From NCBI GenBank assembly GCA_038320275.1, contig JBBQEB010000001.1, forward strand, positions 1 to 64,000: a DNA stretch of 64,000 nucleotides, written 5' to 3'. This DNA is from Myxococcales bacterium. GTDB taxonomy: Bacteria; Myxococcota; Myxococcia; Myxococcales; Anaeromyxobacteraceae. The notes beneath the pieces are model-generated. The model saw only the letters and a program-made list of their open reading frames with translations, was not told the DNA's origin and ran no database searches. The position numbers and the translations under genes are program-made. Positions 28,059 to 61,625 of the stretch are shown piece after piece. Every line of letters begins with the position of its first letter. Position 1 is the stretch's first letter.

Positions 28059-28060
28059 CC

Positions 28061-29377: not shown

Positions 29378-29379
29378 GG

Positions 29380-31474: not shown

Positions 31475-31489
31475 GGACGCTTCGGTGCG

Positions 31490-31990
31490 CTACGGATTCA
31501 CGATGTCGGCGTTCTCGCCTTCGCCGCCGGGCTTCCCGTCCGCCCCGTAGCTCTTGATGTCGAAGCCGTCGGCGTGGACCTGGCCCGGCTGGAGGTAGAC
31601 GTAGTCGTTCTGCCAGGGATCCCTGAGCCCGGCCTTGCACTTGCCGGCCGTGACCACCGCCTGCAGCCCCTCCTCGGTGGACGGATAGCGCCCCTTGTCC
31701 ACCTTGTAGAGGTCGAGGCAGTTCTCGATGGTGTGCAGGTCGGTGCGCGCCTGCTTCACCTTGGCCTCGGTGAGGTTGTTGATGACGTTCACCGCGACCG
31801 CGGCGGCGATGAGCCCGAGGATGGTGATGACCACCATGATCTCGATGAGGGTCATGCCTCTTTGAGACGATTCCGCGAGATCCCGCTTTCGACCTGGGGC
31901 CGGTGCGGCCCCAGACCCCGGCAGCGTCATCCCTCGTTCGGCGGACGCCGCCAGCTTCCGCTTTCCTTCCATCAGATTCGAGCGCTCCAT
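31490..31990 (-). CDS. gspG: T2SS major pseudopilin GspG
   Basis: RG/MTLIEIMVV, GRYPSTEEGLQA, DPWQNDYVY, SYGADGKPGGEGENADI; start may be 31972. Confidence 0.92.
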   Translation of the reverse strand: MERSNLMEGKRKLAASAERGMTLPGSGAAPAPGRKRDLAESSQRGMTLIEIMVVITILGLIAAAVAVNVINNLTEAKVKQARTDLHTIENCLDLYKVDKGRYPSTEEGLQAVVTAGKCKAGLRDPWQNDYVYLQPGQVHADGFDIKSYGADGKPGGEGENADIVNP

Positions 31991-33223: not shown

Positions 33224-33227
33224 CGGC

Positions 33228-35021
33228 TCAGTGGATGTCCTCGGCCGTGACCGACAGCACCTCGGCGGCGGTGGTGATGCCGCGCGCCACCTTGGAGGCG
33301 CCGTGCTCGAGGAGCGTCTGCATGCCGCGGCCCACCGCCGCCGCCTTGATGGAGCCCGAGTCGACGTTCTTGAGGATGAGCTGCCGGACGTCGTCGTCCA
33401 CCAGCATGAGCTCGTAGATGCCGGTGCGCCCCTGGTAGCCGGTGTGCTGGCAGGCCGGGCAGCCGCGCGCGCGGTAGAGCAGGGCCGGGTTGCCGGCGGC
33501 GGCGAGGACCTGGGGAGTGATATTGGCCTGGTCCAGCTCCTCCGCGGTGGGCGCGTACCCCTCCTTGCAATGGACGCACAGCACGCGCACGAGCCGCTGC
33601 GCGAGGACGCCGACCAGGGAGGAGGCGACGAGAAAGGGCTGGACGCCCATGTCGGCGAGGCGGGTCATCGCGCCCGCCGCGTCGTTGGTGTGGAGCGTGG
33701 AGAAGACGAGGTGGCCGGTGAGGGAGGCCTGGATGGCGATCTCCGCGGTCTCGAGGTCGCGGATCTCGCCCACCAGGATGACGTCCGGGTCCTGGCGCAG
33801 GAACGAGCGCAGCCCGCTCGCGAAGGTGAGCTCGATCTTCGGGTTCACCTGGACCTGCCCCACGCCGCCGAGCTGGATCTCGACCGGATCCTCGATGGTG
33901 AGGATGTTGAGGTTGGGCGAGTTGATCTTGGAGAGCGCCGCGTACAGCGTCGTCGTCTTGCCCGAGCCGGTGGGACCCGTCACGAGCACGATGCCGTGCG
34001 AGCGCGTGATGAGCGTGTCCATGATCTCGAGCTGCCAGGGCTCGAAGCCGATCGAGGTGAGGTCGAGGATGACGTTCGACTTGTCGAGGAGGCGCATCAC
34101 GATGCGCTCGCCGTTCGAGGTCGGCACCGTGGAGAGCCGGATGTCCACGTCCTTGCCGGCGATCTTGATGCGGATGCGGCCGTCCTGCGGCAGCCGCTTC
34201 TCGGCGATGTTGAGCCCGCCCATGATCTTGACGCGGGAGGAGAGCGCCGCCTGGATGCGCTTCGGAGGCCGGATGATCTCGCGCAGCTCGCCGTCGATGC
34301 GGTAGCGGACCGAGAGGTCGCGCTCCTCGGGGTTGATGTGGATGTCGCTGGCGCGCTCCTTCACGGCGCGGAAGAGGAGCGAGTTGACGAGGCGGATGAT
34401 GGGCGCCTCGTCGTCGGCGTCGAGGAGGTCGGTGGGCTCCTGCAGCTCGTGCGCGACCGACTCGAGGTCCTCGGAGCCGAGCCCCTCCATGATGCGGTCG
34501 TGCTCGTCGGTGGCCCGGTCGTAGACGCGGTTGATGGCATCGAGGATCGCCTGGCCGGGCGCGACCACCGCCTCCACCGGCGTGCCGAGCAACATGGCGA
34601 GGTCGTCGAGCGCGCCGGTGTCGAGCGGGTCGGCCAGCGCCACACGCGTCGCCTCGCCGGAGGGCCCGAGTGGCAGCACCTTGGCGTTCTTGGCGAAGTT
34701 GATGGGCACCCGCTTGGCGAGCTCGGCCGACGCCGCCTCCGCGTCCACCCTCGCGAGGAAGGGAAGGTCCAGCTGGGCGGCCAGCGCGCGGAGCACCTCC
34801 TCCTCGGAGAGCACCTTCGTCCGGACCAGGATCTCGCCCAGGCGAGCTCCCGCGTGCTCCCCCCGCTGCGCGAGCAGCGCCTCGTCCAGACGCTCGCGGG
34901 CGAGCGCGCCGGAGCGGACGAGGATCTCGCCCAGCGGCAGCCCCACGGCAGACGGGGCGTCGCGGTGCGGGAGCGGGGGCGGGGCGGGGAGCACCGCCAG
35001 CACGGGATCGGGCGGGGTCAT
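33228..35021 (-). CDS. gspE: T2SS ATPase GspE
   Basis: ASDIHINP, GPTGSGKTTT, LRQDPDVILVGEIRD, TGHLVFSTLHTND, Zn CxxC motifs. Confidence 0.95.
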   Translation of the reverse strand: MTPPDPVLAVLPAPPPLPHRDAPSAVGLPLGEILVRSGALARERLDEALLAQRGEHAGARLGEILVRTKVLSEEEVLRALAAQLDLPFLARVDAEAASAELAKRVPINFAKNAKVLPLGPSGEATRVALADPLDTGALDDLAMLLGTPVEAVVAPGQAILDAINRVYDRATDEHDRIMEGLGSEDLESVAHELQEPTDLLDADDEAPIIRLVNSLLFRAVKERASDIHINPEERDLSVRYRIDGELREIIRPPKRIQAALSSRVKIMGGLNIAEKRLPQDGRIRIKIAGKDVDIRLSTVPTSNGERIVMRLLDKSNVILDLTSIGFEPWQLEIMDTLITRSHGIVLVTGPTGSGKTTTLYAALSKINSPNLNILTIEDPVEIQLGGVGQVQVNPKIELTFASGLRSFLRQDPDVILVGEIRDLETAEIAIQASLTGHLVFSTLHTNDAAGAMTRLADMGVQPFLVASSLVGVLAQRLVRVLCVHCKEGYAPTAEELDQANITPQVLAAAGNPALLYRARGCPACQHTGYQGRTGIYELMLVDDDVRQLILKNVDSGSIKAAAVGRGMQTLLEHGASKVARGITTAAEVLSVTAEDIH

Positions 35022-37780
35022 GGGCGAGCGTCCCCCGGCGACGACCCGCGCCCTCCCGGTCCGACCGTCCCCTCGCCGGGCGAGCCCGGGCCGCCGTTCT
35101 CCAGCTTCTGCGACTCGGCCTCGATCTCCTTGCGCACCTTGGTGTAGGGGCCGGTCTTGCGCGTGTAGTCGATGGCCACCTTGTAGCCTGGCTGCTTGCC
35201 GTAGAACTGGTCGACGAAGTCCTGCTGCTCCTTGCGCTTCCGCTCCAGGATGCGGCGGTAGTCCGACTGGTCGCGGATGATGTACGGCGTCAGGAAGAGG
35301 AGCAGGTTCGTCTTCGTCTTGGTGGTGTCGGTGTCGCGGAAGAGCCAGCCCAGCACCGGGATGTCGCCCAGGAGCGGCAGCTTGTGGACGCTCTGGATGG
35401 TGCGCTCCTGGATGAGGCCACCGATGACGATGGTGCCCTGATCCTTCACCGAGATGTTCGTCTTCACGCTGCGCTTCGAGGTGGTGGGGCCGAGCACCGG
35501 GTCCTTGCTCGCGATCTCCTCCGTCTGTTCGTCGATCTGCAGCCGGACGTTGTCACCCTCGGTGATCTGCGGCTTGATCTTGAGACGCAGCTCCACGTTC
35601 TGGCGCTGGATGGGCGCGATGACCGAGCCGAGCCCTCCCAGGCCCAGGAGCGAGCCCACGCCGGTGGCCCCGGCGGCGCCGCTGCTCCCGGCGAGCCCGG
35701 CCAGGTTGCCGAGGCCGCCCGACACCACGCCCGCCTGGAACGGGACGTTCTGCCCGACCGTGATCTCGGCGTCCTCATTGTCCGACGCGAGCACGTGCGG
35801 GGTGGAGATGACGTTCACGTCGGAGCTCGTTTGCAGCGCCTGCAGCAGCACCGCCATGCTGGGGATACCCGGAAGCACGGCGCTGAGCTGCGTCGACGCC
35901 GGGCCGACGAGGCCGGTGAGGAAGCCGCCCAGGGAGATGAGGCTGAGCGGGGAGAAGGAGCTCACGCGCCCGGGCTCGGAGGCGAGCGGGATGAAGCCCG
36001 TCCCGTCCGAGGTCTTGTACGGGATGGCGGCGTGCGCCCCTACCCCGAGCTGCGTCTCGTCGGTGAGGTTCACCTCCATGATCACCGCCTCGACGAACAC
36101 CTGCCGCCGCGGCCGGTCGAGCTTGTCGATGAGCCGCTGGACGCTCGCGAAGTCGGAGCCGCTCGCGAGGACGATGAGGGCGTTCGCCACCTTGTCGGCG
36201 GTGATCTTCACCTCGCCGGAGAAGAGCGTGGCGGTGGTCCCCCCGCCCGGCGCCGCGGCAGGCTGCGCTGCGGGTTGCGGTGGCTGGAAGTTCCCGAAGC
36301 TGGTGGTCGAATGCGCGGGGGTGCTGCCCGTCTGCCCCTGGCGGCGCACCGCCGATTGCCCCTGCGCGAGCGCCTGCAGCGTCTGGGCGAGGTCTTCCGC
36401 CGAGGCGTTCTTCATGAAGACGACGTGGATCTGCCCCTCGCCAGCGGTGGGGACGTCGAGCTGCTCCACCAGATCCTTGATGCGCTGGAAGCTCTTCTCG
36501 TCGGCGATGACCACCAGCTTGTTGGTGCGCTCGTCGGCCATGACCTTGGAGATGGCGAGCAGGTCGTCCACGCCCGCTCCGAACGCAGGAGCTCCGCCCG
36601 GCTGAGGCACGGGAGCCGGAGCCGCGCCCGCGACACCTCCGATGACCGGCCGCCGGCCACCCTTCTGCGCGGCGGGCCCCGCGGGCTGCTGGAAGATCTG
36701 GTTCACCTTCTCCGCGAGGTCGCGGGCCGAGGCGTAGCGCACCTGGATGAAGCGGATGAGCTCTCCCGAACCAGGTCGATCGATGGCGTCCAGCATCCGC
36801 TCGATGCGCCGCACGTTGAGCCCGATGTCGGTGATGATGAGCACGTCGGGGGGGATGGACTGGATGTCCGCGCCCTGCGGGGACGTGAAGTTCGACATGA
36901 TCCCGCGGAGCTGGTCGGAGTCGGCGAAGCGCAGCCGGAAGATCTTCGTCACCGGCTGCTCCAGCGAGGGCGCCTCGCTGCCGTTCTCGAGCAGCGTCGG
37001 GATGGGCAACTTCTTCGCGTCAGCGATGCGGAAGAGCTTCGAGTACCGGCCCGAGGTGTAGATGCCGATGTTGTTCGCGGTGAGCGCCGCCAGGAAGGCC
37101 GCGTAGGCCTCCTCCGCGGTCACCGCGGTCCTGGAGAGGAGCGTGATCTTCCCGCGGGCGATGTCCTCGGTGAACGCGAAGTTCCGGCAGGTCCAGCGGC
37201 TCGCCTGTTCCAGCACGTCCACGATCTCCGCCTTGTTGAAGGCGAGCAGGAGGCGCCCCTGGAGCGGCCTGCAGGCGCCGTCCGCGTGCGCGCTTCCGCC
37301 GGCTGCGCCCGCTGCTGCGTCCGGCGCCGGCGTCACGACCGCCGTTCCGCTGCCGCGAGCGCCGCTGGTGGGGGCCGCCGCGGGGGGCGTCGCCGCGCTC
37401 GGGCCGCGCGCGCGGTCGCGCAGGGCGTTCGAGCGGAGATCCGCGGGCCCCGCGGAGGAAGGCGGGCCAGGGCGGGACAGGCCCGGGGGCGGACTGCCCG
37501 GCGGCGGCCCTGCCCCGGGTGATCCGGGGCTCACCATCCCCGGAACGGGCGCTGGGCCGGTGGAGCCGGACGGGGCGGCGCCGGGCTGCGGCCCGGGGCC
37601 AGCGCCCCCGGCGGCGGAGGCGGACGGTGGAGCGGGGGCCGTCGTAGGCTGAGCCTGCGCGAGGGTCTGGCCGCCGTCCTCCGGAACCTGGACCCCTGGA
37701 CGGGGCCGGCCGGCAGCCGTGACTGCGTCGGGCAGCGCCAGCACGGGGAGCGCGGCGAGCAGGAGCAGGAGCTTTCGCAT
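35018..37780 (-). CDS. gspD: T2SS secretin GspD with long Pro/Ala-rich N-terminus
   Basis: N0-N3 domains, LDRPRRQVFVEAVIMEV, LPLLGDIPVLGWLF, NLLLFLTPYII. Confidence 0.93.
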   Translation of the reverse strand: MRKLLLLLAALPVLALPDAVTAAGRPRPGVQVPEDGGQTLAQAQPTTAPAPPSASAAGGAGPGPQPGAAPSGSTGPAPVPGMVSPGSPGAGPPPGSPPPGLSRPGPPSSAGPADLRSNALRDRARGPSAATPPAAAPTSGARGSGTAVVTPAPDAAAGAAGGSAHADGACRPLQGRLLLAFNKAEIVDVLEQASRWTCRNFAFTEDIARGKITLLSRTAVTAEEAYAAFLAALTANNIGIYTSGRYSKLFRIADAKKLPIPTLLENGSEAPSLEQPVTKIFRLRFADSDQLRGIMSNFTSPQGADIQSIPPDVLIITDIGLNVRRIERMLDAIDRPGSGELIRFIQVRYASARDLAEKVNQIFQQPAGPAAQKGGRRPVIGGVAGAAPAPVPQPGGAPAFGAGVDDLLAISKVMADERTNKLVVIADEKSFQRIKDLVEQLDVPTAGEGQIHVVFMKNASAEDLAQTLQALAQGQSAVRRQGQTGSTPAHSTTSFGNFQPPQPAAQPAAAPGGGTTATLFSGEVKITADKVANALIVLASGSDFASVQRLIDKLDRPRRQVFVEAVIMEVNLTDETQLGVGAHAAIPYKTSDGTGFIPLASEPGRVSSFSPLSLISLGGFLTGLVGPASTQLSAVLPGIPSMAVLLQALQTSSDVNVISTPHVLASDNEDAEITVGQNVPFQAGVVSGGLGNLAGLAGSSGAAGATGVGSLLGLGGLGSVIAPIQRQNVELRLKIKPQITEGDNVRLQIDEQTEEIASKDPVLGPTTSKRSVKTNISVKDQGTIVIGGLIQERTIQSVHKLPLLGDIPVLGWLFRDTDTTKTKTNLLLFLTPYIIRDQSDYRRILERKRKEQQDFVDQFYGKQPGYKVAIDYTRKTGPYTKVRKEIEAESQKLENGGPGSPGEGTVGPGGRGSSPGDARP

Positions 37781-37802
37781 GGGCTGGGGTTCGCGGGGCC
37801 CG

Positions 37803-38780
37803 TCAGGATCCCGTGACGTTGTACTCCTTGCGGACGATCTGGCCGTTGCGGTCGATCTCGATGGTGATGTGCGTGGACTCGCGGAGCTTCTGGTAGATCT
37901 CCAGCGCCTTGTCGGGCGAGTTGATCTCGTACCCGTTGATGCGCTGGATGACGTCGCCGTTCTCGATGCCGATGGCCGAGTAGAGCGAGCCGGGCTGGAT
38001 GGAGAAGAGCTTGAACCCGTTCGCAGCCCCGTTCTTGAACGAGGGCACGAGCCGCGCCTGCGTCGCCACGGCGTTGAGGTTCGTGAGGGTGTTGTCGATG
38101 TAGCTCTTCTTCACGTCGTAACGGTTGTCGGAGACCTTCTTCACGCCGTCGGCCGGGGCGCCTCCCGCGGCGCCGTTCCCATCGTCGGGGACGTGCGCCA
38201 CCGCGCCCGCGGCGGGAGGTGACGCGCCGGCTCCAGGCTCGAAATCGAGGTATTCCTTGCGCCCATCGTTGCAGACGATGGCGGCCACCTTGACGGTGCT
38301 CCCGTCGCCTCGGTCGTCGCGCAGCCGCTCCACCGACAACAGCGAGGTGCCCATCACCGCGTCGCCCACGCCGTACACGTGCGCCTCGCGCGTACCGAGG
38401 TCGATGATGGTGGCCATCGAGTCCCGCGGAGGCGTCGCCAGCACGGCTGCCACGAGCTGAGCGTGGAGCCCGGACTTCACCGGAGCAGCATCGGAGGCCC
38501 AGCAGTTCTGGGCGCTCTGCGGCCGTCCGGCCTGCTGCTCCTCGACGGGCGCCGCGGGCGGCTTCAATCCCACCAGCGCGTAGAGCCGCGCAGGGTCGAG
38601 CTGCGGCGGACCGGCGGGGCGGGGCGGGGCGGCCGGCAGCGAGGCGAGATCCACCGAAGGCTTGGGCCGGATCAGCGACGCCGCCAGCGTGTTCACCGTG
38701 CGTGCCGAGAGCCAGGCCGCCGCGAAGAGGAGGGCCAGGTTGGCGGTCCAGGCGTATTTCTTGAAAAAAGTGTCGAGCAT
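37803..38780 (-). CDS. gspC: T2SS protein GspC (HR + PDZ)
   Basis: N-terminal TM, HR domain, GFKLFSIQPGSLY..GIENGDVIQRING. Confidence 0.88.
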   Translation of the reverse strand: MLDTFFKKYAWTANLALLFAAAWLSARTVNTLAASLIRPKPSVDLASLPAAPPRPAGPPQLDPARLYALVGLKPPAAPVEEQQAGRPQSAQNCWASDAAPVKSGLHAQLVAAVLATPPRDSMATIIDLGTREAHVYGVGDAVMGTSLLSVERLRDDRGDGSTVKVAAIVCNDGRKEYLDFEPGAGASPPAAGAVAHVPDDGNGAAGGAPADGVKKVSDNRYDVKKSYIDNTLTNLNAVATQARLVPSFKNGAANGFKLFSIQPGSLYSAIGIENGDVIQRINGYEINSPDKALEIYQKLRESTHITIEIDRNGQIVRKEYNVTGS

Positions 38781-51658: not shown

Positions 51659-51715
51659 TTCGCGAACTCGCATGGCTTCCAGGGTTGGGGGGCCTCCCAC
51701 GTGCCGGAGCGATGC

Positions 51716-52078
51716 ATGCTGAAGTCCGACCTCATCAACATCCTCGTGACGAAGCGAGGTGTGACCCAGAAGCAGGCCGAGGCCACCATCGAGAACATCT
51801 TCGAGTCCATGAAGACGGCGCTGTGTGGGGGTGAGAACATCGAGATCCGCGGGCTTGGGGCCTTTCACGTGAAGCACTACGAAGGCTACCAGGGCCGCAA
51901 TCCCAAGACGGGCGAGGTCATTCCGGTAAAGCCCAAGCGGGGGATCCTGTTCCGCACGGGCAAGGAGCTGAGAGACCGGGTGAATCGGGCGGATGAGGAG
52001 GCTGCGGCGGCCGCCGCCCAGGAACGCCAGGAAGGCGGGGGCGGAGCGCCTCCCATCGCAGCCGGAGGCACCGGGTAG
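51716..52078 (+). CDS. HU/IHF family DNA-binding protein (IHF-beta-like)
   Basis: MLKSDLI, IEIRGLGAF, GRNPKTGE, FRTGKELRDRVN. Confidence 0.92.
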   Translation: MLKSDLINILVTKRGVTQKQAEATIENIFESMKTALCGGENIEIRGLGAFHVKHYEGYQGRNPKTGEVIPVKPKRGILFRTGKELRDRVNRADEEAAAAAAQERQEGGGGAPPIAAGGTG

Positions 52079-52093
52079 GTCGGCGGTCCACGT

Positions 52094-54124
52094 TCACGCC
52101 GCCATCCCCATCGCGATCCGGCCCAGCGGCCGGACCGCAAGGGTCTCGGGGAGCTCTTGATAGGAGAGCACCGTCAGGCGCGGGAAGCGCGGCGAGACCA
52201 CCTGTCGCACCGCCCGCCGGATCTCCGGAGCGGTGAGGAGCACCGCCTCGGCTTCCCCTTCTGCCTCGGCGAAGGCCCGCTCGAGATCGTCGAGGAGCGC
52301 GAGCGTCGCCCCAGGTGCCAGCACCGCCGCCCCGTCGCACAGCGCCTCGCGCAAGGCACCCTCTGCCGCGGGGTCGAGGAGGAGCGCGTGGAGGACGCCG
52401 GAGGGCGCGTGAGCATGGGCGAAGTGGCGGCGGAGCGCTCGCCTGCAACTCGAAGCCAGCCCGGCCGCGCCCCTGGCCGCGCCACCCGCCTCCAGCATCG
52501 CGTCGAGGAGGGTCCGCATGGGCCGGATGGAGACGCCCTCCTCGAGCAGCGCGCGCAGCACCTCGGCGAGGAGGGGCGCGGGGAGCTGTCGTGCGGCTTC
52601 ACGGATCAGGGCCGGATGCGAGGCTTCCAGACCCTCCACCATCGCCTGCACCTCCTGGACGCCGACGAGGAGGTGCGCGTGGCGGCGGAGCGCCGCCGCG
52701 GCAGACGCGGCCACCCGCTCCCAGGGATCGCGCACGGGGGCGACCGCTGCCGCGCGCTCCGCGTCGGTGGACGAGATACGGGCCGCCAGTGCGCCGGTGA
52801 GCGGCTCCGGCTCCCTCGCGGCGAGGATGCCCAGGGCGTGCAGCTCGGCCGGCGACACCAGCGCCAGCCGCTCTCCAAGGCGGGCGAAGCCCGAAGCCGC
52901 CGGAACCTCGTCCACGAGGAGGCGCCATGCGCCGGGGGCGAGCCCGCCCCGACGCACCTGCACAGGCGGAAGGCGAACGCCCAGCTCGGTCCAGAGGTCG
53001 CTCGCCAGCGAGGGTAGGAGCTCGCGTGCGACCCGGTCGCTTCCGGCGAGGTCGTCCGCGAGCTCGAGGACTACGGGAGAGCGGGTGCTACCTTCACCCG
53101 CGTCCGGGGCCCGGTCCGCGGGGCCTTGCGCCGCCGGAGCCCGACCGGCGCCACCACGCCGGAGATGAGCGAAGCGCGCGCCCAGGCCCGCCGCAGCCGC
53201 CACGAGGAGGAAGGGCACCGCCGGCATGCCCGGCGCGAGGGCCGCGCCAGCGCAGAGGACTGCCACGGCTGCCAGCGGCCGCGGATCTCCGAAGAGCTGC
53301 CCTGCCATCTCCTCCGCCAGCGAGCCCCCCTCCTCCTCGGCCGCGACGCGGGTGACCGCGACGCCCGCAGCGAGCGACACCAGCAGGGCGGGGATCTGCG
53401 CCGCGAGCCCATCGCCGATGGCGAGGATCGCGTAGCGCCGCGCCGCCGCCTCCAGGCTCATGCCGTGGAGGAGCCCCGCAAGGAGCCCGCCCAGCACGTT
53501 CACGATCACGATGGCCACTCCGGCCAGCGCATCGCCCTTCACGAACTTGAGCGCACCGTCCATCGCCCCGTAGAGCTGCCCCTCGCGCTCGAGCGCGCGC
53601 CTGCGGCGCCTCGCCTCGGCGGGGTCGATGCTCCCGGCGCGCAGCTCGGCGTCGATGGACATCTGCTTGCCGGGGAGCGCGTCGAGGGTGAAGCGCGCGG
53701 CGACCTCCGCGACGCGCTCGGCTCCCTTCGCGACCACCAGGAGCTGGACGACGGTGAGGATCGCGAAGACGACGCCCCCCACCACCCAATCGCCCGCGAC
53801 CACCACCCGGCCGAAGGCGTCGATGACCCGGCCCGCCTCCCCGCGCGAGAGCACGAGCCGGGTGGAGCTCACCTCCAGCGCGAGCCGCAGGAGGGTGGTG
53901 AAGAGGAGGAGCGTGGGGAAGCTCGCGAAGCGGAGCGCGTCCCTCGCGAACAGCGCCACCACCAGGATGGTGGCCGAGAAGGCGAGGCTGAAGGCGAGCC
54001 CCAGATCCACCATCCACGGGGGGAGGGGGGCGAAGAGCGCGCTCACCAGGGCGAGGGCGGCGGCGGCGAGGGCGAGGTCGGAGAGCCCGCGCGGCGCGCG
54101 GAGACGGCGAAGACGTCGGATCAT
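52094..54124 (-). CDS. sctV: Type III export gate SctV/FlhA (FHIPEP family)
   Basis: FPTLLLFTTLLRL, KGAERVAEVAARFTLDALPGKQMSIDAELRAG, YGAMDGALKFVKGDA, VLSYQEL. Confidence 0.92.
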   Translation of the reverse strand: MIRRLRRLRAPRGLSDLALAAAALALVSALFAPLPPWMVDLGLAFSLAFSATILVVALFARDALRFASFPTLLLFTTLLRLALEVSSTRLVLSRGEAGRVIDAFGRVVVAGDWVVGGVVFAILTVVQLLVVAKGAERVAEVAARFTLDALPGKQMSIDAELRAGSIDPAEARRRRRALEREGQLYGAMDGALKFVKGDALAGVAIVIVNVLGGLLAGLLHGMSLEAAARRYAILAIGDGLAAQIPALLVSLAAGVAVTRVAAEEEGGSLAEEMAGQLFGDPRPLAAVAVLCAGAALAPGMPAVPFLLVAAAAGLGARFAHLRRGGAGRAPAAQGPADRAPDAGEGSTRSPVVLELADDLAGSDRVARELLPSLASDLWTELGVRLPPVQVRRGGLAPGAWRLLVDEVPAASGFARLGERLALVSPAELHALGILAAREPEPLTGALAARISSTDAERAAAVAPVRDPWERVAASAAAALRRHAHLLVGVQEVQAMVEGLEASHPALIREAARQLPAPLLAEVLRALLEEGVSIRPMRTLLDAMLEAGGAARGAAGLASSCRRALRRHFAHAHAPSGVLHALLLDPAAEGALREALCDGAAVLAPGATLALLDDLERAFAEAEGEAEAVLLTAPEIRRAVRQVVSPRFPRLTVLSYQELPETLAVRPLGRIAMGMAA

Positions 54125-55161
54125 GGCAGGTCTCCCAGGCTGGTCCCGTGCACGTGCACCAGGACCGCGGCGGCGGCTTCGTACAGCTCCTCGGGGATGG
54201 ATTCCCCGACGTCGGCGAGGCGGTGGAGCGCGCGGGCGAGCGCGATGTCGCGCACGATGGGGATTCCCGCCCGCCGAGCCTCGGCGCGCAGGCGCGCCGC
54301 CTCCGCCCCGAGCCCCTTCGCGAGCACCGTGGGCGCTTCGGCGCTCGCCCGGTCGTGATGGAGCGCGACCGCGACATGGGTGGGGTTCACGACGAGGCAA
54401 GTGGCCGCGCTCACGGGGGAGGCGCTCGAGAGCGACCTGTGCAGCCGGCGCCGCTCGCCGCGGAGCGAGGGATCGCCGTCCTCCTCGCGCCGATCCCGCG
54501 CCACCTCCTCGCGCGTCATGAGGAGCGCGCGCCGGTGCCGGCGGGCGGAGAGGGCCAGGTCGAGCGCGCCGAGAGCGAGGAGCAGCGCAGCGAGCTCGAG
54601 GGCGAGCTCGAAGGCCGTCCGGGCGCCGAGGGTCAGCGCCGCGCCCGGCGCGAGCCTGGGCGAGGCCATCAGGGCAGGCGCGGCGCCGCGGAGGTGCTGC
54701 CAGCCGAGCCCGAGCGCCCCGGCGGTCTGGAGCGCACCGAGGGCCGCGCGCGCGGCGCCCTCGCCCGAGACGATCCGTCGCAGTCCTGGGCCGAGGGCGA
54801 GTCGAGCCGTTCGAAAGTGGATCGCCTCGGGCGCGAAGAGCCCCCGCGCCTGGAGCGCGCCGGCGAGCAGGGCCGCTCCCGCCGCGGCCGCGCAGGGTGG
54901 GAGGGAGAGGCGCGCGAGGAGGGAGAGCGCTCCCAGGATCGCTCGCCAGGGCTCGACGAGCTCGACGGCCGAGCCGGCCAGGGCGCGCCGCAGCTCGCGG
55001 GCGAGGACCGCGGTGGAGGACCGCCCGGTGGCGGCGAGCGCGGCCAGTCCGGCCGCGAGCGCGACCGCGCCGGTGAGGAGGCGCGAGGTGGCGATCTCGC
55101 CCCGGCGGCGGGCCTCCCGCAGGCGGCGCGGGGAGGGCGGCTCGGTACGCCGCCCGCTCAC
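54121..55161 (-). CDS. sctU: Type III export switch protein SctU/FlhB
   Basis: RTEPPSPRRLREARRRG, MTREEVARDRREEDGDP, NPTH autocleavage motif, IPEELYEAAA. Confidence 0.9.
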   Translation of the reverse strand: MSGRRTEPPSPRRLREARRRGEIATSRLLTGAVALAAGLAALAATGRSSTAVLARELRRALAGSAVELVEPWRAILGALSLLARLSLPPCAAAAGAALLAGALQARGLFAPEAIHFRTARLALGPGLRRIVSGEGAARAALGALQTAGALGLGWQHLRGAAPALMASPRLAPGAALTLGARTAFELALELAALLLALGALDLALSARRHRRALLMTREEVARDRREEDGDPSLRGERRRLHRSLSSASPVSAATCLVVNPTHVAVALHHDRASAEAPTVLAKGLGAEAARLRAEARRAGIPIVRDIALARALHRLADVGESIPEELYEAAAAVLVHVHGTSLGDLP

Positions 55162-55931
55162 GGCTGCCCCCCGGAGAGGCTGCCGAGGAGGCGGGCCGAC
55201 AGGGCGACCCCGCTCACCATGCGGCCGGCGAGGGCGGCCGCCGGCAGCGCCAGCGCCAGGAGCCCGGCCGCAGCGCGCGCGGGCTGAGCTGCGCTGGAAG
55301 CTTGAAGCTGTGGGGCGAGGCGCGCCGCGAGGGCGAGGGCGAGGTCGGCCGCGAGCACGCCGGCGGCTGCGGGGGCGCCCAGGGCGAGCGCCAGGGAGAG
55401 GAGCTCGCCCGCGCTCGCCCCGGTCATGGCGAGGAGCCCGACCGAATGCGCAGCCGTCCCGGCGGGCACGGCGCGGAACGTCTCGAGGAGCGCGTGGACC
55501 ACCAACCGGTCGCCTCCCGCCGTCGCGGCCAGCACCACCAGCGCCTGCGCCAGGAGATCTCCGCTCGCCGACTCGCGCTGGCGGAGCGCCGCGACGTGCA
55601 GCTCGGCGAGCGTCGCGCCGCGCAAGGTGTCGATGAGACGGCCGCCCGCCCGTGCGGCCTCGAACGGCATGGACGCCACCAGCGCGAGCGCGGTGCCGAG
55701 CCCGAGCTCCCGGGCTCCCCCGGCGAGGACGGCGAGCCCGTCCGCGGTGAACGGCAGGCAGCCCCCCGCAGCCCAGGCCGAGGCGCCCAGCCCGAAGGCG
55801 AGCGCCAGGCGCACGATTCCCGGGACGAGCGGCCCGCCGAGAAAAGGGCAGAGCAGCGCCACCGGCAGGAGGCGAAGACCATGCAGCCCGGCAGCCAGGA
55901 TCGACGGCGCCAGATCGGAGACGGGGCTCAC
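55158..55931 (-). CDS. sctT: Type III export gate SctT/FliR (divergent)
   Basis: Hydrophobic; AGGRLIDTLRG, ARLAPQLQ; lies between sctS and sctU. Confidence 0.8.
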   Translation of the reverse strand: MSPVSDLAPSILAAGLHGLRLLPVALLCPFLGGPLVPGIVRLALAFGLGASAWAAGGCLPFTADGLAVLAGGARELGLGTALALVASMPFEAARAGGRLIDTLRGATLAELHVAALRQRESASGDLLAQALVVLAATAGGDRLVVHALLETFRAVPAGTAAHSVGLLAMTGASAGELLSLALALGAPAAAGVLAADLALALAARLAPQLQASSAAQPARAAAGLLALALPAAALAGRMVSGVALSARLLGSLSGGQP

Positions 55932-56194
55932 GGCGCGATCCGGGGGAGCAGCTCGAGGCAAGTGGCCGCGAAGCGGAGCACGCGTGCGCCGATCCAGGGG
56001 CCGGACACGCCAAGCGCGACGAGCACCGCCGCGAGACGGGGGACGACCGCGAGGCTGTTGTCCTGAACCTGCGTGGCGGCCTGAAGCACGCCCGTCACCA
56101 GGCCGACCGCGAGTGCCGCGAGCAGCGGCGGCGCCGAGACCACGAGGACGAGGAGCACCGCTTCGCGAGCGAGCCCGAGGAAGGTGGCGTCCAT
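55928..56194 (-). CDS. sctS: Type III export gate SctS/FliQ
   Basis: PPLLAALAVGLVTGVLQAATQVQDNSLAVVPRL..GPW. Confidence 0.9.
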   Translation of the reverse strand: MDATFLGLAREAVLLVLVVSAPPLLAALAVGLVTGVLQAATQVQDNSLAVVPRLAAVLVALGVSGPWIGARVLRFAATCLELLPRIAP

Positions 56195-56200
56195 GGCGGG

Positions 56201-56875
56201 TCAGCCCTGGTAGCCGAGGACGAGGGCGCGGGCGAGGAGCTTCCAGCCGTCCACGGCCACGAAGAGGAGGAGCTTGAAAGGCAGGGCGACGCTGGTGGGC
56301 GAGAGCTGCGTCAGCCCGAGCGCGAGCAGCACGTTCGCGACGAAGAGATCCACCACCAGGAAGGGCAGGAAGATGAGGAAGCCCATGGTGAAGGCGCGCC
56401 GCAGCTCGGAGACCACGAAGGCGGGCGCGAGCACCGCGAAGTCGGCGTCGCTCACCGAGGCTCGCCCCGCCGGAGGCCGGCCGCGTCGCGCCAGCTCCGC
56501 GAAGGTGGCGCGGTCGTCGGGCCTCGCGAACCGGGCGAGGAAGGCGCGCAAGGGCTCCGCGGCCTCGCCCGCGGCCTGCAGCGTGCGCTCCACCCCGCCA
56601 GGCCCCACCGCCCGGGCCCTGGCGTACGACTCCTCCGCCACTGGGCTCATCGCGAGAAAGGTGAGCACCAGGGCGAGGCCGGTGATGGCAGACGAGGGGG
56701 GGATCTGCGGCGCCCCCAGCGCGGAGCGCGTCACCGAGAGCACCACCGCCATCTTGAGGAAGGAGGTGACCATCACGAGAGCGATGGGCGCCAGGGCCAG
56801 GGCGCCCAGCAGCAGCAGGAGGTCGGCGGGTCGTTCGGCCATCCCGGCCGATGGAAGAGTGGCGAGGGCGATCAC
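56201..56875 (-). CDS. sctR: Type III export gate SctR/FliP
   Basis: VTSFLKMAVVL, ALGAPQIPP, PAFVVSELRRAF, FLPFLVVDL, LPFKLLLFVAVDGW. Confidence 0.92.
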   Translation of the reverse strand: MIALATLPSAGMAERPADLLLLLGALALAPIALVMVTSFLKMAVVLSVTRSALGAPQIPPSSAITGLALVLTFLAMSPVAEESYARARAVGPGGVERTLQAAGEAAEPLRAFLARFARPDDRATFAELARRGRPPAGRASVSDADFAVLAPAFVVSELRRAFTMGFLIFLPFLVVDLFVANVLLALGLTQLSPTSVALPFKLLLFVAVDGWKLLARALVLGYQG

Positions 56876-57207
56876 GGGAGGTCACCAGGGGACGCGCGGT
56901 GGAGGAGGGTCACGCCGGAAGCGCCGTAGCCCACCAGCAGTCGGTCGCCTCCGAGGGACAGCACGGCGACGCCGGTGTCACGGCCGAGGGCGTGCCGCTC
57001 GAGCACGGTGATCCGCGGGGCGGCGGCGGCGGAGGACCGGCGGCGTGCCAGGACGAGCCCGCCGGCCAGCAGCGCGACGAGACCGAGTCCCCGGAGCGCC
57101 ATCGCCGAGCCCGAGCCGCCGGCCAGCGCAGCGAGCGCGGCGAGGCCGAGGGCGCCGAGGAGCAGCGCCCGATCGCGGGCGCGGGCGGGGAGAGCACGGA
57201 GGGTCAT
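56872..57207 (-). CDS. fliO: FliO-like export-gate assembly factor
   Basis: TM then ITVLERHALGRDTGVAVLSLGGDRLLVGYGASGVTLL; lies between the FliN/SctQ and FliP/SctR genes as in flagellar operons. Confidence 0.7.
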   Translation of the reverse strand: MTLRALPARARDRALLLGALGLAALAALAGGSGSAMALRGLGLVALLAGGLVLARRRSSAAAAPRITVLERHALGRDTGVAVLSLGGDRLLVGYGASGVTLLHRASPGDLP

Positions 57208-58193
57208 GGCAGTGCGCCCACCTCGGCGATGCGCACGCCGAGGGTGCCACCGAGGTCGACGAGCTGTCCGCGCGCCACGGCGCGCTCGCCGGCGCGAAGC
57301 ACGACGGTGCCATCGGCGCGCACGTCGAGCGGGAGCGCGGCGCCCGGCTCGAGGCGCGCCAGCTCGCCCAGCGTGACGTTCACGCGCGCGATCTCGACGG
57401 CGAGGGTGATGGGATAGCTGGCCTGAGTCTCGGTCATGCGGATCTCCTCGACGTGAAGGAAGTGAGACTCTCGGCGGCCTCGCACCTCGAGACCCCCGGG
57501 CAGCACGAGCGCGGCCGGAGGCGCGGGGTGGTCGAGCACGAGCACGTCGCCGGGCGCGAGGGGCGCGAGCTCCTCCAGCGCGAGCGAGCACGCGCCGTCC
57601 CGCAGCGAGCACCCCACCTGCGCAAAAGCGGCGGCCTCCGGCAGCTCCGGCGCTCCCGCCGCGAGGTGGGCGATGGCAGCGGGATCGATGAGGAGGCGGG
57701 CGGTCCCGCGGTCCGGGCCGAGCTGGAGCTGCAGATCGATGGCGAGCGCGCCGCCCGTGAGGAGCTGCGAGGGGGGCTCGGAGGCCAGCCGGGGAACGAG
57801 CGCGCCCGCCGGGGTGGACGTCACTGCATCGATGGCCACCAGCGCGAGCAGCTCGAGGACGCTCGACTCGGCCTCGGTCGCGGCGAGCACGGCCGGCAGG
57901 GCGCCGGACGCGCCCGCCAGACGCCGCAGGGCGCGGGCGACGAGCGCCGCGTCCACCTCGAGCCACGCGCCGGCCCCGACCGCTTCGAGGCAGAAGCCCA
58001 CGCGGGCGAGCCCGGGTCCGCCGCGACGCGCGGGCGGGGCGAGGGGGGTCGCCGTGATCTGCACCGGGACCCCCAGCAGCGCCCCGACGGCACCGGCCGC
58101 AGCGTCCAGGGCGGCGCGCCCTGCGGACCGGGCGGGGGGCGCCAGCAGCGCGAACCCGCGGGACACGCTGGGGAGGATGAAGGGGAGCGGCAT
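57204..58193 (-). CDS. sctQ: SctQ/FliM-FliN C-ring protein with two SPOA-like segments
   Basis: LEELAPLAPGDVLVL and ITLAVEIARVNVTLGELARLEPGAAL..VARGQLVDLGGTLGVRI. Confidence 0.8.
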   Translation of the reverse strand: MPLPFILPSVSRGFALLAPPARSAGRAALDAAAGAVGALLGVPVQITATPLAPPARRGGPGLARVGFCLEAVGAGAWLEVDAALVARALRRLAGASGALPAVLAATEAESSVLELLALVAIDAVTSTPAGALVPRLASEPPSQLLTGGALAIDLQLQLGPDRGTARLLIDPAAIAHLAAGAPELPEAAAFAQVGCSLRDGACSLALEELAPLAPGDVLVLDHPAPPAALVLPGGLEVRGRRESHFLHVEEIRMTETQASYPITLAVEIARVNVTLGELARLEPGAALPLDVRADGTVVLRAGERAVARGQLVDLGGTLGVRIAEVGALP

Positions 58194-58311
58194 GCACGAC
58201 CCTTGTCCACGGCGCGTGCCAGCCCGGACAGGCCCGCGGGAGCGCTCGCGAGGGCCGCTGCCCGGGCGCGGCGCGCCCCGCCCGTCCGTCCGGCGGCCGA
58301 GCTCCGCGAGG

Positions 58312-58605
58312 TCAGCGAGAAGAGCCCCCTCGGCAGGAGAGTGCGTCCCCGCCCACGCGGAGGTCGCGCGCGAGGCGGGCGAGGAGCGGCGGGAGGAGGA
58401 GCTCGCATCCCGGAGGCGGGCGGCCGCTCACGAGGCAGGCGGACAGAGCTTGCAGGCGCTCCCCCCGCGAAAGCGCACCCAGGCGCGCCGCCTCCAGGGA
58501 TGCAGCCGCCCCGTGCGGCCCGGCGATGTGCGCGAGGAGCCGGCCGGCGCGTGCGGGGGCGAGCGCCGCCGCCACCGCCGCCAGCCGCCCCAGCCGCGGC
58601 GTCAC
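58312..58605 (-). CDS. Hypothetical protein in the SctK position
   Basis: GTG overlaps the sctJ stop; Ala/Leu/Arg-rich; identity rests on position only. Confidence 0.45.
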   Translation of the reverse strand: MTPRLGRLAAVAAALAPARAGRLLAHIAGPHGAAASLEAARLGALSRGERLQALSACLVSGRPPPGCELLLPPLLARLARDLRVGGDALSCRGGSSR

Positions 58606-59450
58606 GGCGCGTCACCCGGTGGCGGAGCCGCTCCGCCGGTGGTCGCCGCCCGCCGCGCGAGCTCCAGGAGCTTTCGCCACAGGGGCGCGGAGCCCCTGCC
58701 GCCCGAGAGCAGCGCGAAACCCCCGAGCGCCGCCAGCAGCGCACCGGCGAGGAGCGTCCGGCGAGGCGTTCTCGCCGGCGGCGCGGCCGGGCGGGAGCGG
58801 GCGCCCTCCGCGACAAGCACTGACACGGCGGCTGCGTCGAGACCGGGGACCGCCCCGGCCACGAGCGAACGCACCCCCGCCGCCATGGGCTCCACCTCGC
58901 CCCGGGCGCCGGCCCTCACCTTGAGCAGGACCGCGGCGCGAGGGGGTGGTGCGGACTCGGGGCGGAGGGGATCGGGAGGGGGAAGCGCCAGGTGGACCCG
59001 GGCTTCCACCACTCCCTCGATGGACTGGAGGGTGCGGGCCAGCTCTCCGGAGAGGGCGTGGAGGTACAGGGCGCGCTCCTCGGAGGCGGTGGGTACCACG
59101 CTCGTCTTGCCGAAGACCTCCGCGAAGCCGGGTGGCCGCGGGCGTGCGAGCTCGCCCTCGGTCACGATGCCGCGGGCGCGAGGCGCGTCGGAGGCCGGGA
59201 CTTCCACCCGCCAGCCCCCTTCGGATCCCTCCTCGCGCCGCTTCTCGGCCGCGATCCCGTCGCGATCCAGCGCGACCACCACGCGGTTCGCCTGCCTCTC
59301 GTCGAGGCCGTGGAGGAGCTCCTCCCGGCCGCAGCCTGCGAAGGCGACCAGACCGAGGAGGAGGAGGGCGGGGGCTCGGGTCGGGGTCGCGGTCGGGATC
59401 AGGGTCGCGGTCGCCCGTCGGCGAGGTCGTTCGTTCACGGTGCGCTCCAC
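58602..59450 (-). CDS. sctJ: SctJ/YscJ-like inner ring lipoprotein
   Basis: LVAFAG-C lipobox, LLHGLDERQAN, ELARTLQSIEGVVEARVHLALP, LVAGAVPGL, C-terminal TM; far shorter than FliF. Confidence 0.85.
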   Translation of the reverse strand: MERTVNERPRRRATATLIPTATPTRAPALLLLGLVAFAGCGREELLHGLDERQANRVVVALDRDGIAAEKRREEGSEGGWRVEVPASDAPRARGIVTEGELARPRPPGFAEVFGKTSVVPTASEERALYLHALSGELARTLQSIEGVVEARVHLALPPPDPLRPESAPPPRAAVLLKVRAGARGEVEPMAAGVRSLVAGAVPGLDAAAVSVLVAEGARSRPAAPPARTPRRTLLAGALLAALGGFALLSGGRGSAPLWRKLLELARRAATTGGAAPPPGDAP

Positions 59451-59451
59451 T

Positions 59452-59805
59452 TCAAACCTGCGTGTTCACGGCCTGCTTGATGGTGGAGACGCCTGCCTCG
59501 ACCACCTTGGACGCCAGGTCCACCGTCTGTGAATAGCGGTAGGCGTCCGCTTGCAGCGCGAGGAGCTCCTGGGGGCGAAAAGTCTGGCCGCTGCGGGCGG
59601 CGGCGATGGCGCCGTCGAGCCGGGCGCGCGCGCCCTCGATGGCGGCGAGCGCGATGCGGGCGGGGCTCTGCGCAGGCAAGGCCGCGGCGCAGGGCGGCGG
59701 ATGTGCGGCGCTGGCGCGGAGAGCGGCGCCGAACGAGGGGCGGGGCGCGATGGGTGGAGCGGTGGCGCGCGCGACCGCCACGCCGCCGAGTGCGGGGAGG
59801 GCCAT
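59452..59805 (-). CDS. SctI-like inner rod protein (putative)
   Basis: C-terminal PQELLALQADAYRYSQTVDLASKVVEAGVSTIKQAVNTQV resembles PrgJ/YscI; directly upstream of sctJ. Confidence 0.6.
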   Translation of the reverse strand: MALPALGGVAVARATAPPIAPRPSFGAALRASAAHPPPCAAALPAQSPARIALAAIEGARARLDGAIAAARSGQTFRPQELLALQADAYRYSQTVDLASKVVEAGVSTIKQAVNTQV

Positions 59806-59810
59806 GGCGG

Positions 59811-60224
59811 TCAGTGGATGTTGTTGATGGCGGCCTTGGCGCTATCGTGCCGGACCTTCATCACGTTCGTCACCGCCGTGAATTCGCGGCTCTCGCGCTG
59901 CATGCCTTCCTGGAGCTGCAGGTACTGGAGGTTGAAGGTCTGGGCCTCCTGCTGCAGCGCGCGGGTGGCGTCGAGCACGTCCCCTCCACCGCCGCCCGGG
60001 AGCGGGGCTCCCGCGATCCCCAGCCCGTTGCCGGGCGCAGCCGCGGCCCGCAGGGCCCCCGCCAGCACGGCGCCGCCGGGCACGAACGGAGCGGCGAGCG
60101 ACACCGAGCTCGCGACGGTGGAGGCGACCGAGGAGGCCGCGCTGCGGAGCGCGGTGCTGAAGCGGCCGGGCTCGGCCTTGCGTTCGGTGGAGGGTGCGAC
60201 GACGAGCGATCCGATGCGTTCCAT
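59811..60224 (-). CDS. SctF-like needle/filament subunit (putative)
   Basis: C-terminal YLQLQEGMQRESREFTAVTNVMKVRHDSAKAAINNIH resembles needle-subunit C-termini; GGAAAGGA RBS; first gene of the operon. Confidence 0.6.
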   Translation of the reverse strand: MERIGSLVVAPSTERKAEPGRFSTALRSAASSVASTVASSVSLAAPFVPGGAVLAGALRAAAAPGNGLGIAGAPLPGGGGGDVLDATRALQQEAQTFNLQYLQLQEGMQRESREFTAVTNVMKVRHDSAKAAINNIH

Positions 60225-60252
60225 GGAGGGTCCTTTCCCTCCTCGCCGCCGG

Positions 60253-60268
60253 AGCAACGCGCGTGCCG
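60253..60268 (-). promoter_or_regulatory. Sigma54 -24/-12 promoter of the T3SS-like operon
   Basis: Minus strand CGGCACG-CGCG-TTGCT, 28 bp upstream of the ATG at 60224. Confidence 0.7.
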
Positions 60269-60389: not shown

Positions 60390-61520
60390 TCAGGTGACCG
60401 TGGCGCCGAAGAGCCGCCCCACGCCGTAGGTGATGCCGGCCGCGAGCGCGCCCAGCGCCAGCATCCGCGCGCCCCCACGCCAGGGGCTCGTCCCGGACAG
60501 GAACCCCACCAGCATCCCCACCCCCCCCAGGACCACGCCAGCGACGCCGGCGGCGACCAGCACGGCCGCCGTGCCCGCCAGGAAGAGGAACGGGATCACC
60601 GGGACCGCCGCGCCGATCGCGAACATCACGAAGGACGACCCGGCCGCCTGCACCGGCGAGCCGAGGTCTTCGGGATCGAGCCCCAGTTCCTCGCGCACCA
60701 GGGTGTCGAGCGCGTGATCGGGGTTCTTGAAGATCTCCGTCGCGGTCTGGGTGGCCTGCTCCGGCGAGAGCCCCTTCCCCTGGAAGATGAGGGCGAGCTC
60801 GGCCGCCTCCTCCTCCGGAGCCTCCTCCACCTCGCGCTTCTCCATGTCGATCTGCCGGGCCAAGAGGTCGCGCTGGCTCGCGACCGAGGTGTACTCGCCG
60901 ACGGCCATGGACGAGGCTCCGGCCAAGAGCCCGGCAAAGCCGGTGACGAGGAGGGTGCGGGTGTCGTGCACCGCCCCCGCGACGCCGAGCACGAGCGACA
61001 GGTTCGAGACCAGCCCGTCGTTCATCCCGAAGATGGCGGCCCGCACCGCGCCGGCTCGCCCGCCGCCTCGATGCCAGCGCTCGCGCACCGAGATGGCGCC
61101 GCGCGCGCCGTCCGGGGCGCTGCCCTTCATCACCTGCAGCCGCTCGCGATGCTCCCGCTCCTCCTCCGCCATGGCGGTGGCGGACGCTCCGCCCTGCTGC
61201 CGGTACTTCTCCGCGTCGTTGCCCTCGTTCTCCACCACCAGCGGGAGCACGGCCGCAGTGCCGAGCCGGCGCGCGAGCCAGAGGAGCGTCCGCACCCGCG
61301 AGGACGGGCGCTCCGGGGGCAGCGGCGCGCCCGCATCCTGGAGCTTGCGCGTCCAGACGTCGGCATGGCGCCGCTCCCCGGCGGCCAGGTCGCGAAAGGA
61401 ACGGGCGCGCTCCGGGTCCTTCTCCACCGCGGCGAGCCCCTCGTAGAGCGCCGCGCCGTCCCACTCATCGACGAGGTTCTGCAGCCAGAGGTGGGCGCGG
61501 GGGTGCGGGGCGACGGCCAT
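60390..61520 (-). CDS. Ferritin/rubrerythrin-like domain fused to a VIT1/CCC1 transporter
   Basis: N-terminal ExxH motifs (ERRH, EREH); IFGMNDGLVSN, AGASSMAVGEYTSV. Confidence 0.88.
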   Translation of the reverse strand: MAVAPHPRAHLWLQNLVDEWDGAALYEGLAAVEKDPERARSFRDLAAGERRHADVWTRKLQDAGAPLPPERPSSRVRTLLWLARRLGTAAVLPLVVENEGNDAEKYRQQGGASATAMAEEEREHRERLQVMKGSAPDGARGAISVRERWHRGGGRAGAVRAAIFGMNDGLVSNLSLVLGVAGAVHDTRTLLVTGFAGLLAGASSMAVGEYTSVASQRDLLARQIDMEKREVEEAPEEEAAELALIFQGKGLSPEQATQTATEIFKNPDHALDTLVREELGLDPEDLGSPVQAAGSSFVMFAIGAAVPVIPFLFLAGTAAVLVAAGVAGVVLGGVGMLVGFLSGTSPWRGGARMLALGALAAGITYGVGRLFGATVT

Positions 61521-61625
61521 TCGCCCCACTTAACGGAGCGGAGCGCCCGCCACAGGCTGCGCCGCCACCGCTCGCCTCCCGCGGAGGCCCGCGCTATAAG
61601 AACCCCCCTTCCCGGAGCCCCAAAC

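Follow-up and report, generated by a model that had tools for sequence, protein, structure and literature searches.

Two kinds of non-flagellar T3SS (type III secretion system) are known from the myxobacteria. According to the text of Abby and Rocha 2012 (PMC3459982), the Myxo systems comprise a short and a long locus, the short one occurring in all Cystobacterineae, and secretin and SctF are absent; the same text counts the ATPase as core; its Dataset S1 gives a single long-type Myxo ATPase for each genome and none for Anaeromyxobacter, and its Dataset S2 lists the Anaeromyxobacter systems. For the short system of Myxococcus xanthus, T3SS(2), the passages of PMC10196010 that deal with it state that it is down-regulated during predation, that it is not involved in killing (citing Thiery 2022), and that reviews call it degenerate. 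The long locus, the "needleless" T3SS* (MXAN_2434-2464), acts in prey lysis with Kil, as set out in the relevant parts of PMC12075869 and PMC10433427. Here we analyse a stretch of 64,000 nucleotides (the window) from a member of the Anaeromyxobacteraceae (assembly GCA_038320275.1, contig JBBQEB010000001.1, positions 1 to 64,000), in which an eleven-gene block at positions 52094-60268 is the known short non-flagellar T3SS of the Myxococcales, the T3SS(2) of M. xanthus (MXAN_5643-5654). The locus was described in 2010-2012 and represents the earliest branch of non-flagellar T3SS evolution.

Judging from parts, trees, co-occurrence and motifs, we think it probable that this block is the first of three modules of a secretin-less, non-flagellar T3SS that would build a periplasmic filament and be served by an ATPase encoded in trans. 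The second module is an orphan sctL-sctN-sctO block, and the third a long paralog of the first gene of the locus together with its chaperone.

Results

Layout and gene content of the locus

The ORF (open reading frame) reading of the window gives eleven intact frames without stops across 52094-60268, all on the minus strand, and thereby bears out the first-pass annotation, made from the letters alone, which had listed eleven co-directional, mostly overlapping genes in the order below. Six of the ten junctions within the block are 4-nt overlaps, and there is one gap, of 118 nt, between orf97 and sctQ. Family scans named sctI, sctJ, sctQ, fliO, sctR, sctS, sctT, sctU and sctV, with injectisome models mostly ahead of flagellar ones, and returned no family match of their own for the 137-aa first gene or for orf97.

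59811..60224, minus strand: candidate SctF-like (needle/filament-type) subunit, 137 aa, weak SctF profile similarity
59452..59805, minus strand: SctI inner rod (NF038054, E 1e-3, under cut-off)
58602..59450, minus strand: SctJ inner-membrane ring lipoprotein (TIGR02544, E 2e-39, against 5e-12 for FliF)
58312..58605, minus strand: orf97 (97 aa) in the SctK position, tentatively FliG-N-like by a weak profile match
57204..58193, minus strand: SctQ C-ring protein (TIGR02551, E 7e-23)
56872..57207, minus strand: FliO (PF04347, E 3e-8, over cut-off)
56201..56875, minus strand: SctR (above the NF009438 cut-off), its gate loop LTQL polar and free of methionine
55928..56194, minus strand: SctS (family scan; FliQ score slightly better)
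55158..55931, minus strand: SctT (TIGR01401, E 8e-31, against 2e-19 for FliR)
54121..55161, minus strand: SctU with NPTH self-cleavage motif (family scan)
52094..54124, minus strand: SctV, 676 aa (TIGR01399, E 1e-172)

The start of the 137-aa gene is the ATG at 60224, which lies 3' of a ribosome site and is common to relatives; the Myxococcus ortholog of SctI matches PF17001 (E 1e-4), and SctJ has a lipobox-like Cys near residue 40. Inside the locus there is no gene for an ATPase, SctL, SctO, a secretin, a translocon, hook or flagellin. Named relatives are Anaeromyxobacteraceae, with 65-80% identity in SctR, and the order F-like, I, J, orf, Q, fliO, R, S, T, U, V and then the neighbouring HU gene is kept in 21 loci as far as their contigs extend. 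The same order from the F-like gene to HU recurs in the short-type loci among a set of 79 fetched loci, Myxococcaceae included, and none of these fetched loci carries sctL, sctN or sctO inside the short block.

In a tree of 58 SctV/FlhA rows, SctV falls into a short clade (support 100) inside the non-flagellar clade (100), apart from the FlhA of its own genome, and it keeps 55 of 61 reference-invariant residues. All trees in this work are quick trees with composition warnings, that of SctV being built under LG+G4. The gate thus stands outside the flagellar clades, as the earlier annotation had expected, with flagellar relics in the locus.

An ATPase module elsewhere in the genome

The source genome, 90.7% complete, carries two FliI/SctN ATPases and two FHIPEP genes, one FlhA and the SctV of this locus. 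One of the ATPases sits in a fliE-F-G-H-I operon and the other in an orphan sctL-sctN-sctO block, so that the absence of ATPase, SctL and SctO reported at first holds for the locus and fails for the genome.

G000:C16:9539-12008 (G000 being the source genome): module 2, SctL, SctN and SctO, after rpoC and a sigma70 gene

The arrangement rpoC, sigma70 gene, sctL, sctN, sctO is found in 12 of 13 loci of the family type, the thirteenth contig being too short. The orphan ATPase scores best as SctN, keeps Walker A and 90 of 92 invariant residues, and groups in the myxobacterial non-flagellar ATPase clade with support 99; the orphan SctO matches the SctO of the long locus at 95.9%. A single clade of orphan and long-Myxococcales SctN was rejected by the AU (approximately unbiased) test (p-AU 0.0275), which disfavours the orphan as a plain remnant of a long locus. 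Its grouping with Polyangia-type ATPases had support 96 in one tree and was absent from two others, and its grouping with those of genomes G076 and G107 reached only 86, on a long branch. The sigma70 gene between rpoC and the orphan sctL (L004:8755-9486, on G000:C16) is RpoS/RpoH-like and 77-97% conserved in that place family-wide.

Co-occurrence was counted in 23 family genomes with a completeness of 90% or more and no more than 5% contamination, a filter that removed 14 of 37. All three modules are present in 19 of the 23 and none in 2; the other 2, which have two of the three, are fragmented, G009 being without a chaperone match and G012 without an SctN match, each in more than 500 contigs. 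ATPases were assigned by identity (at least 56% for orphan, 49-54% for flagellar), with context checked for the fetched loci. At least 13 family genomes without a FlhA or FliI match still keep the orphan SctN, so the short gate would be its only partner there.

Outside the family, five genomes of three other families carry both the short and the long locus and a single SctN, which lies in the long locus or belongs to it (in G056, divided between two contigs). Among the 51 genomes of the family of G053, short SctV is present in 46 (45 with the unpublished G100 left aside), each with exactly one non-flagellar SctN; 41 have both SctVs, 2 the long SctV only, 3 neither SctV nor SctN, and 5 the short SctV only. 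Of these last five, G079 and G102 are fragmented, and G076, G107 and G080 are 98-99% complete. G076 and G107 each have a lone, divergent L-N module, followed in G076 by an SctO-like gene. In G080 the long T3SS* is lost and a lone L-N-O kept, whose SctN nests among long-type ATPases (97-100). From these counts and from G080 it follows that a long-type motor can outlive its own gate, and that the short gate was never found without SctN in this sample. Separately, G070, G072 and 12 more genomes of the G053 family, whose members are generally regarded as lacking flagella, have FlhA-/FliI-like matches of 39-48% identity.

In Polyangia-, Haliangiales- and Sandaracinaceae-type genomes (L361, L364, L308, L269, L254, L268, L258), non-flagellar sctV genes stand alone, one of them next to a recR-like gene, and there are also isolated sctL-sctN pairs, which suggests fully scattered T3SSs across the Myxococcota.

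The first gene and its relatives

The 137-aa first gene occupies the position of needle genes in canonical loci, and its product, with a mean identity of 0.59, ranks with the most conserved ones encoded there. The last 37-38 columns of its family align without gaps to the SctF profile (probability 62%, E 7.5e-5, score 26.0), compared with at most 15.4 for 30 shuffles, 7.7 for the reversed profile and 9-12 for four other helical profiles. Weak matches, all under cut-off, were seen among 128 family members to HrpF (12 members), HrpA (11) and the needle family (9; best E 6e-4), and in one Atlas cluster at 0.90 the needle family is assigned to 11% of the members; the family was counted at 849 proteins in one search and at 1783 clusters (50% identity) in another. 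Paralogs also occur in the "needleless" long T3SS*, where the paralog is followed by a tetratricopeptide-repeat (TPR) chaperone, as YscF is by YscG. These profile matches and the gene order point, weakly, to an SctF-like product, not to SctF outright.

In the long locus of G053, four tandem, near-identical genes of needle size, 73 aa, carry the same C-terminal motif (L152:5610-7190) and lie between LcrH-like chaperones. The 73-aa protein is a candidate for the major filament subunit of T3SS*, with an assembly artefact as a possible source of the four copies; the profile used for it included members of the query family, which inflates its 99.9% family match. G037 has one more copy of the 137-aa family, its third, which stands on its own with no T3SS genes around it (L156:5178-5804).

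A long paralog and its chaperone

The C-terminal profile of the first gene finds a second protein in the source genome, of 412 aa, on contig C264 (E 6.5e-8).

G000:C264:1888-3521: module 3, 412-aa protein with needle-like C-terminus and LcrH/SycD-like chaperone

Long paralogs of this kind have 300-410 aa and are of low complexity. Of 37 family genomes, 31 have a strong match to the chaperone, and a long paralog lies upstream of the chaperone gene in 30 of 30 fetched loci, one at E 0.79 only. Most of these loci have a conserved sigma54-type site, with none in the scanned window for 4 of the 30. The genus without the short locus has two weak chaperone matches, neither with such a paralog. In other Myxococcales families (L403-L407, L410), a long needle-motif protein paired with a chaperone also occurs by itself, outside both T3SS loci.

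Sigma54-type sites and an internal start in sctQ

Two sigma54-type sites divide the block at the very gap where the long locus carries L-N-O-P.

60253..60268, minus strand: sigma54-type site 1, GG-N10-GC, about 44 nt before the first gene, putative promoter
58206..58221, minus strand: sigma54-like site 2, GG-N10-GG variant, before sctQ, in 20 of 21 loci

Site 1, which the first-pass annotation had placed ahead of the operon as a promoter, reads 60268-60253 and has a matching site in 29 of 29 relatives' loci; it is a candidate promoter, and the strict motif occurs just 26 times in the 4.1-Mb genome. Site 2 had been overlooked. At the orf97/sctQ junction, where site 2 lies, some relatives carry unrelated DNA: insertions of 2-5.5 kb are found there in L011, L021, L023 and L164, and one at fliO/sctR in L022.

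Also overlooked was an internal ATG in sctQ at 57437 (codon 253), with a GAGGAG ribosome site ahead. All 41 family loci have an internal ATG or GTG with a ribosome site, and in 28 of them the codon is ATG; among control windows, 2 of 516 have ATG plus ribosome site. YscQ and SpaO have an internal start likewise.

The export gate, FliO and orf97

The NPTH motif was read in 52 of 77 short-locus rows of SctU, with variants in 16 and no motif read in 9. Positions 2 and 3 of the SctR gate loop are polar in 41 of 42 family rows, the remaining row being unread, and in 28 of 28 Myxococcaceae-type short rows; across the sample, de-duplicated by identity only, all 69 motif-bearing short-type sequences have such a loop and none of 60 flagellar rows does. 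Long-type SctR has His or Gln at position 2 in 12 of 13 rows and Met at position 3 in all. In Salmonella FliP, loop substitutions of this type preserve export and leak ions, according to the portion of PMC8239009 on the loop. A polar loop is compatible with a working injectisome because the HrcR of Ralstonia has a similarly polar LSQV; with this and the MQMV of Pantoea we rejected the loop as unique to the short system.

The presence of FliO, taken at first as a special feature of the locus, is no such thing, the long T3SS* having FliO too. Flagellar relics in T3SS* include a FliA/WhiG-like sigma factor, a FliK-type SctP and this FliO (L151:10270-11103, L151:17370-18314 and L152:1-435). The stated lack of FliG is doubtful, as orf97 weakly matches the FliG N-terminal domain: its family of 47 sequences scores 27.1 against the FliG profile, with E 2e-3, a probability of just 14% and no shuffle above 12.9, and an ortholog matches PF14842 with E 0.2. 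A structure model of orf97 folded without alignment had a pLDDT of 55 and was not used.

Selection on the genes

Codon models gave omega values of 0.04-0.11 for the first gene, sctI, sctJ, sctQ, sctR, sctS, sctL and the chaperone, with 0.076 for the 137-aa first gene, compared with 0.044 for the neighbouring HU gene; synonymous sites are near saturation, which makes all omegas rough. For sctT and fliO the fit did not move from omega 1.0 and was discarded; the closest pair has a pN/pS of 0.077/0.39 for sctT and 0.133/0.50 for fliO. Purifying selection on all eight fitted genes agrees with the earlier argument against decay.

Parts not found

A search for ATPase, SctD and secretin genes elsewhere in the genome, which by the first-pass annotation would refute its reading, gave the L-N-O module described above and so went against that reading in part. 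No T3SS secretin was found in the source genome at its 90.7% completeness; it has two secretins, GspD and PilQ, each scoring above the cut-off of its own model, and GspD belongs to a type II secretion system (T2SS) operon. Four near-complete relatives have extra secretins, all but one (in G024) within Tad operons; being mostly Tad RcpA, these gave no cognate secretin. SctD and SctW had no match in the genome, in family searches that were both blank in the control genomes too; four FHA (forkhead-associated) proteins are present. For the ruler SctP/FliK there was no PF02120 match in the genome, flagellar FliK included. FliK is also reported absent from A. dehalogenans in PMC2330069, whose account concerns only the flagellar cluster. 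Of 21 near-complete family genomes with the short locus, 8 gave a TadA match, G000 and G004 not among them (at most 27 candidates scored per genome; gene content only), which leaves Tad unsupported as an obligatory partner.

Neighbouring genes

Family scans confirm HU and VIT1 as the bounding genes.

51701..52078, plus strand: HU/IHF-family gene, constant convergent neighbour, outside the machine (family scan, relatives' loci)
60390..61529, minus strand: VIT1-family gene, upstream neighbour in many family members, outside the machine (family scan, relatives' loci)

The VIT1-family protein has a rubrerythrin-like domain at its N-terminus. Elsewhere in the window, a T2SS operon at 26538-38780 (GspD at 35018-37780) lies 14 kb from the T3SS locus, with rho and a DNA ligase-like gene nearby.

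Discussion

A three-module machine

The machine that we favour would be assembled as follows. Module 1, read from two sigma54-type units, would supply the ring SctJ, the rod SctI, the C-ring SctQ with a short second product, FliO and the gate SctRSTUV. By the roles that such proteins play in flagella and injectisomes, FliO would aid the assembly of SctR, and the FliG-N-like orf97 may connect SctJ to SctQ. Onto the machine assembled on SctJ, the L-N-O ATPase complex would dock in trans; where the long T3SS* is present, as in the family of G053, the short gate would instead borrow the single SctN of T3SS*. Export would begin with SctI, go on to the 137-aa subunit and end with the chaperoned long paralog, and the latter two may polymerise through their common C-terminal helix into a short periplasmic rod or filament, a structure that the earlier annotation had also proposed and that remains plausible. 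Since no secretin or length ruler was found, the machine alone probably does not inject into other cells. Its job is likely that of a sigma54-switched envelope structure in starvation or development, not prey killing, and this is the weakest step of the proposal.

Several observations weigh against this model. The SctF match is itself weak, covering 37 columns, lying below Pfam cut-offs and resting on a shallow needle profile of 20 sequences, and the commonest match in the family is an unrelated helical bundle (15 of 128 members). The AlphaFold model of the 137-aa protein has helices at 21-41, 52-61 and 80-136, that is, one long C-terminal helix and no needle hairpin; its PxxP turn is 88 residues, instead of about 40, away from the end; and two PDB sequence searches, Foldseek and VIA-align returned no needle structures for it, just generic coiled coils. 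As to the modules, G012 carries the locus without an SctN match (in 730 contigs), the genomes are related so that the co-occurrence counts are not independent, and a sigma54-type site precedes the orphan sctL in only 1 of 36 rows, which leaves co-regulation of module 2 unsupported. In three shared genomes SctV has 62-65% identity against 76-79% for FlhA, and SctN 68-69% against 76-78% for FliI; this faster divergence than that of the flagellar counterparts suggests a system under relaxed selection, not a dead one.

The main competitor, which we regard as unlikely and yet the most serious of the four, keeps the complete machine with its ATPase and drops the filament: the needle-like proteins would be soluble or translocator-like periplasmic cargo, and their shared C-terminus an export or chaperone-binding feature. 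It would account for the long paralog of 300-410 aa, whose low-complexity sequence comes with a chaperone of the LcrH/SycD-like class, the class serving translocators, and it sits well with the missing hairpin of the AlphaFold model and with the lack of a ruler protein among those found. It fares less well with the first gene, which holds the needle position with an inner-rod gene kept beside it and is among the best conserved (0.59), and with a needle-sized 73-aa paralog in four tandem copies.

Cargo might also be passed over the outer membrane via the Tad pilus or the GspD or PilQ secretin, as has been proposed for T3SS* and Kil. The sections of PMC12075869 on T3SS* have it working with Kil/Tad, four near-complete family genomes do carry a Tad operon, and GspD is only 14 kb from the locus; but TadA is present in just 8 of 21 genomes, the source genome and G004 not among them, and GspD is part of a T2SS operon, so that we give such a hand-over little credence.

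Less credible again, and rejected here, is the view of the first-pass annotation that the gate has no ATPase and runs on proton motive force only. No ATPase lies in any of the 21 or the 79 fetched loci, flagellar gates retain some function without their ATPase in the experiments covered by the cited part of PMC8239009, and in Myxococcus-like genomes the sole SctN sits in the other locus. Against these points stand the orphan L-N-O of the source genome and its family, non-flagellar and co-occurring with the locus, and the SctN of all 46 short-locus genomes in the G053 family, three of them without a long SctV. Least probable of all is a decaying relic without present function, since faster divergence, drift towards Ala/Gly/Pro/Arg-rich sequence, loss in one genus (G015, G023, G031) and the label "degenerate" in the T3SS(2) passages of PMC10196010 are outweighed by intact frames, omega well below 1, conserved promoter sites and internal start, and presence in two families.

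Beyond the three-module model lies a bolder and rather doubtful possibility: that the myxobacterial T3SSs are not needleless at all, both loci having an overlooked SctF-like family, and that the short system, spread across three loci and with a borrowed ATPase, makes a two-subunit secretin-less filament, its polar gate loop turning the gate into a conduit for ions or small solutes besides protein. Were it true, the system would be a living model of a step between flagellum and injectisome, M. xanthus would run two gates on one motor, and the four-copy 73-aa gene would be the missing needle of T3SS*. The anatomy added here names candidate substrates (the 137-aa protein and the chaperoned long paralog), a motor, promoters and a gate property, and so makes the system testable; both systems may be lost when sctN is deleted in Myxococcus, and homology that went unnoticed may be the reason for the label "needleless".

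Comparison with known systems

The short locus itself is already in print, in the sections of PMC3459982 and PMC10196010 on these systems. The three-module split, borrowed ATPase, chaperone module, SctF-like family and polar loop were not found in the literature searched, which covered few subscription papers, and Figure 5 of the 2012 paper may show a distant ATPase.

The canonical injectisomes (Ysc, Hrp1, Hrp2, SPI-1, SPI-2) share with this system the SctJ-type ring, SctI, the NPTH of SctU, the orders F-I-J-K-L and N-O-P-Q-R-S-T-U and, in Ralstonia HrcR, the polar loop; they differ in that the system here has no SctC, has FliO and is scattered over three loci, with SctD, SctW and SctP not found. 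The flagellar export apparatus likewise has FliO, a FliG-N-like protein and sigma54-type control, whereas the modules lack a FliF-length ring, rod, hook and flagellin, the trees exclude them from it, and the genome holds a separate flagellar set.

T3SS* shares the gene order F-like, I, J, K-like, Q, fliO, R, S, T, U and the lack of a secretin, together with paralogs of the 137-aa protein, LcrH-like chaperones and FliO. In contrast to the short system, it has an SctV clade of its own, it holds L-N-O, a FliK-type SctP, a FliA-like sigma factor and a neighbouring FHA protein in one place, and it keeps Met at gate position 3, where the short system is polar. The gene order of the short locus is that of the long locus minus L-N-O-P, cut at the orf97/sctQ gap.

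Closest of all is the short non-flagellar T3SS itself, as found in Myxococcus xanthus AM003 and other Myxococcaceae, with which the locus shares gene order, the HU neighbour, the SctV clade (100), the lack of a secretin and the order I-J-Q-R-S-T-U-V in one short locus. It departs from the published description in two respects: an SctF-like gene, weakly matched and above controls, heads the locus, and the ATPase that the 2012 text counts as core is present in trans only.

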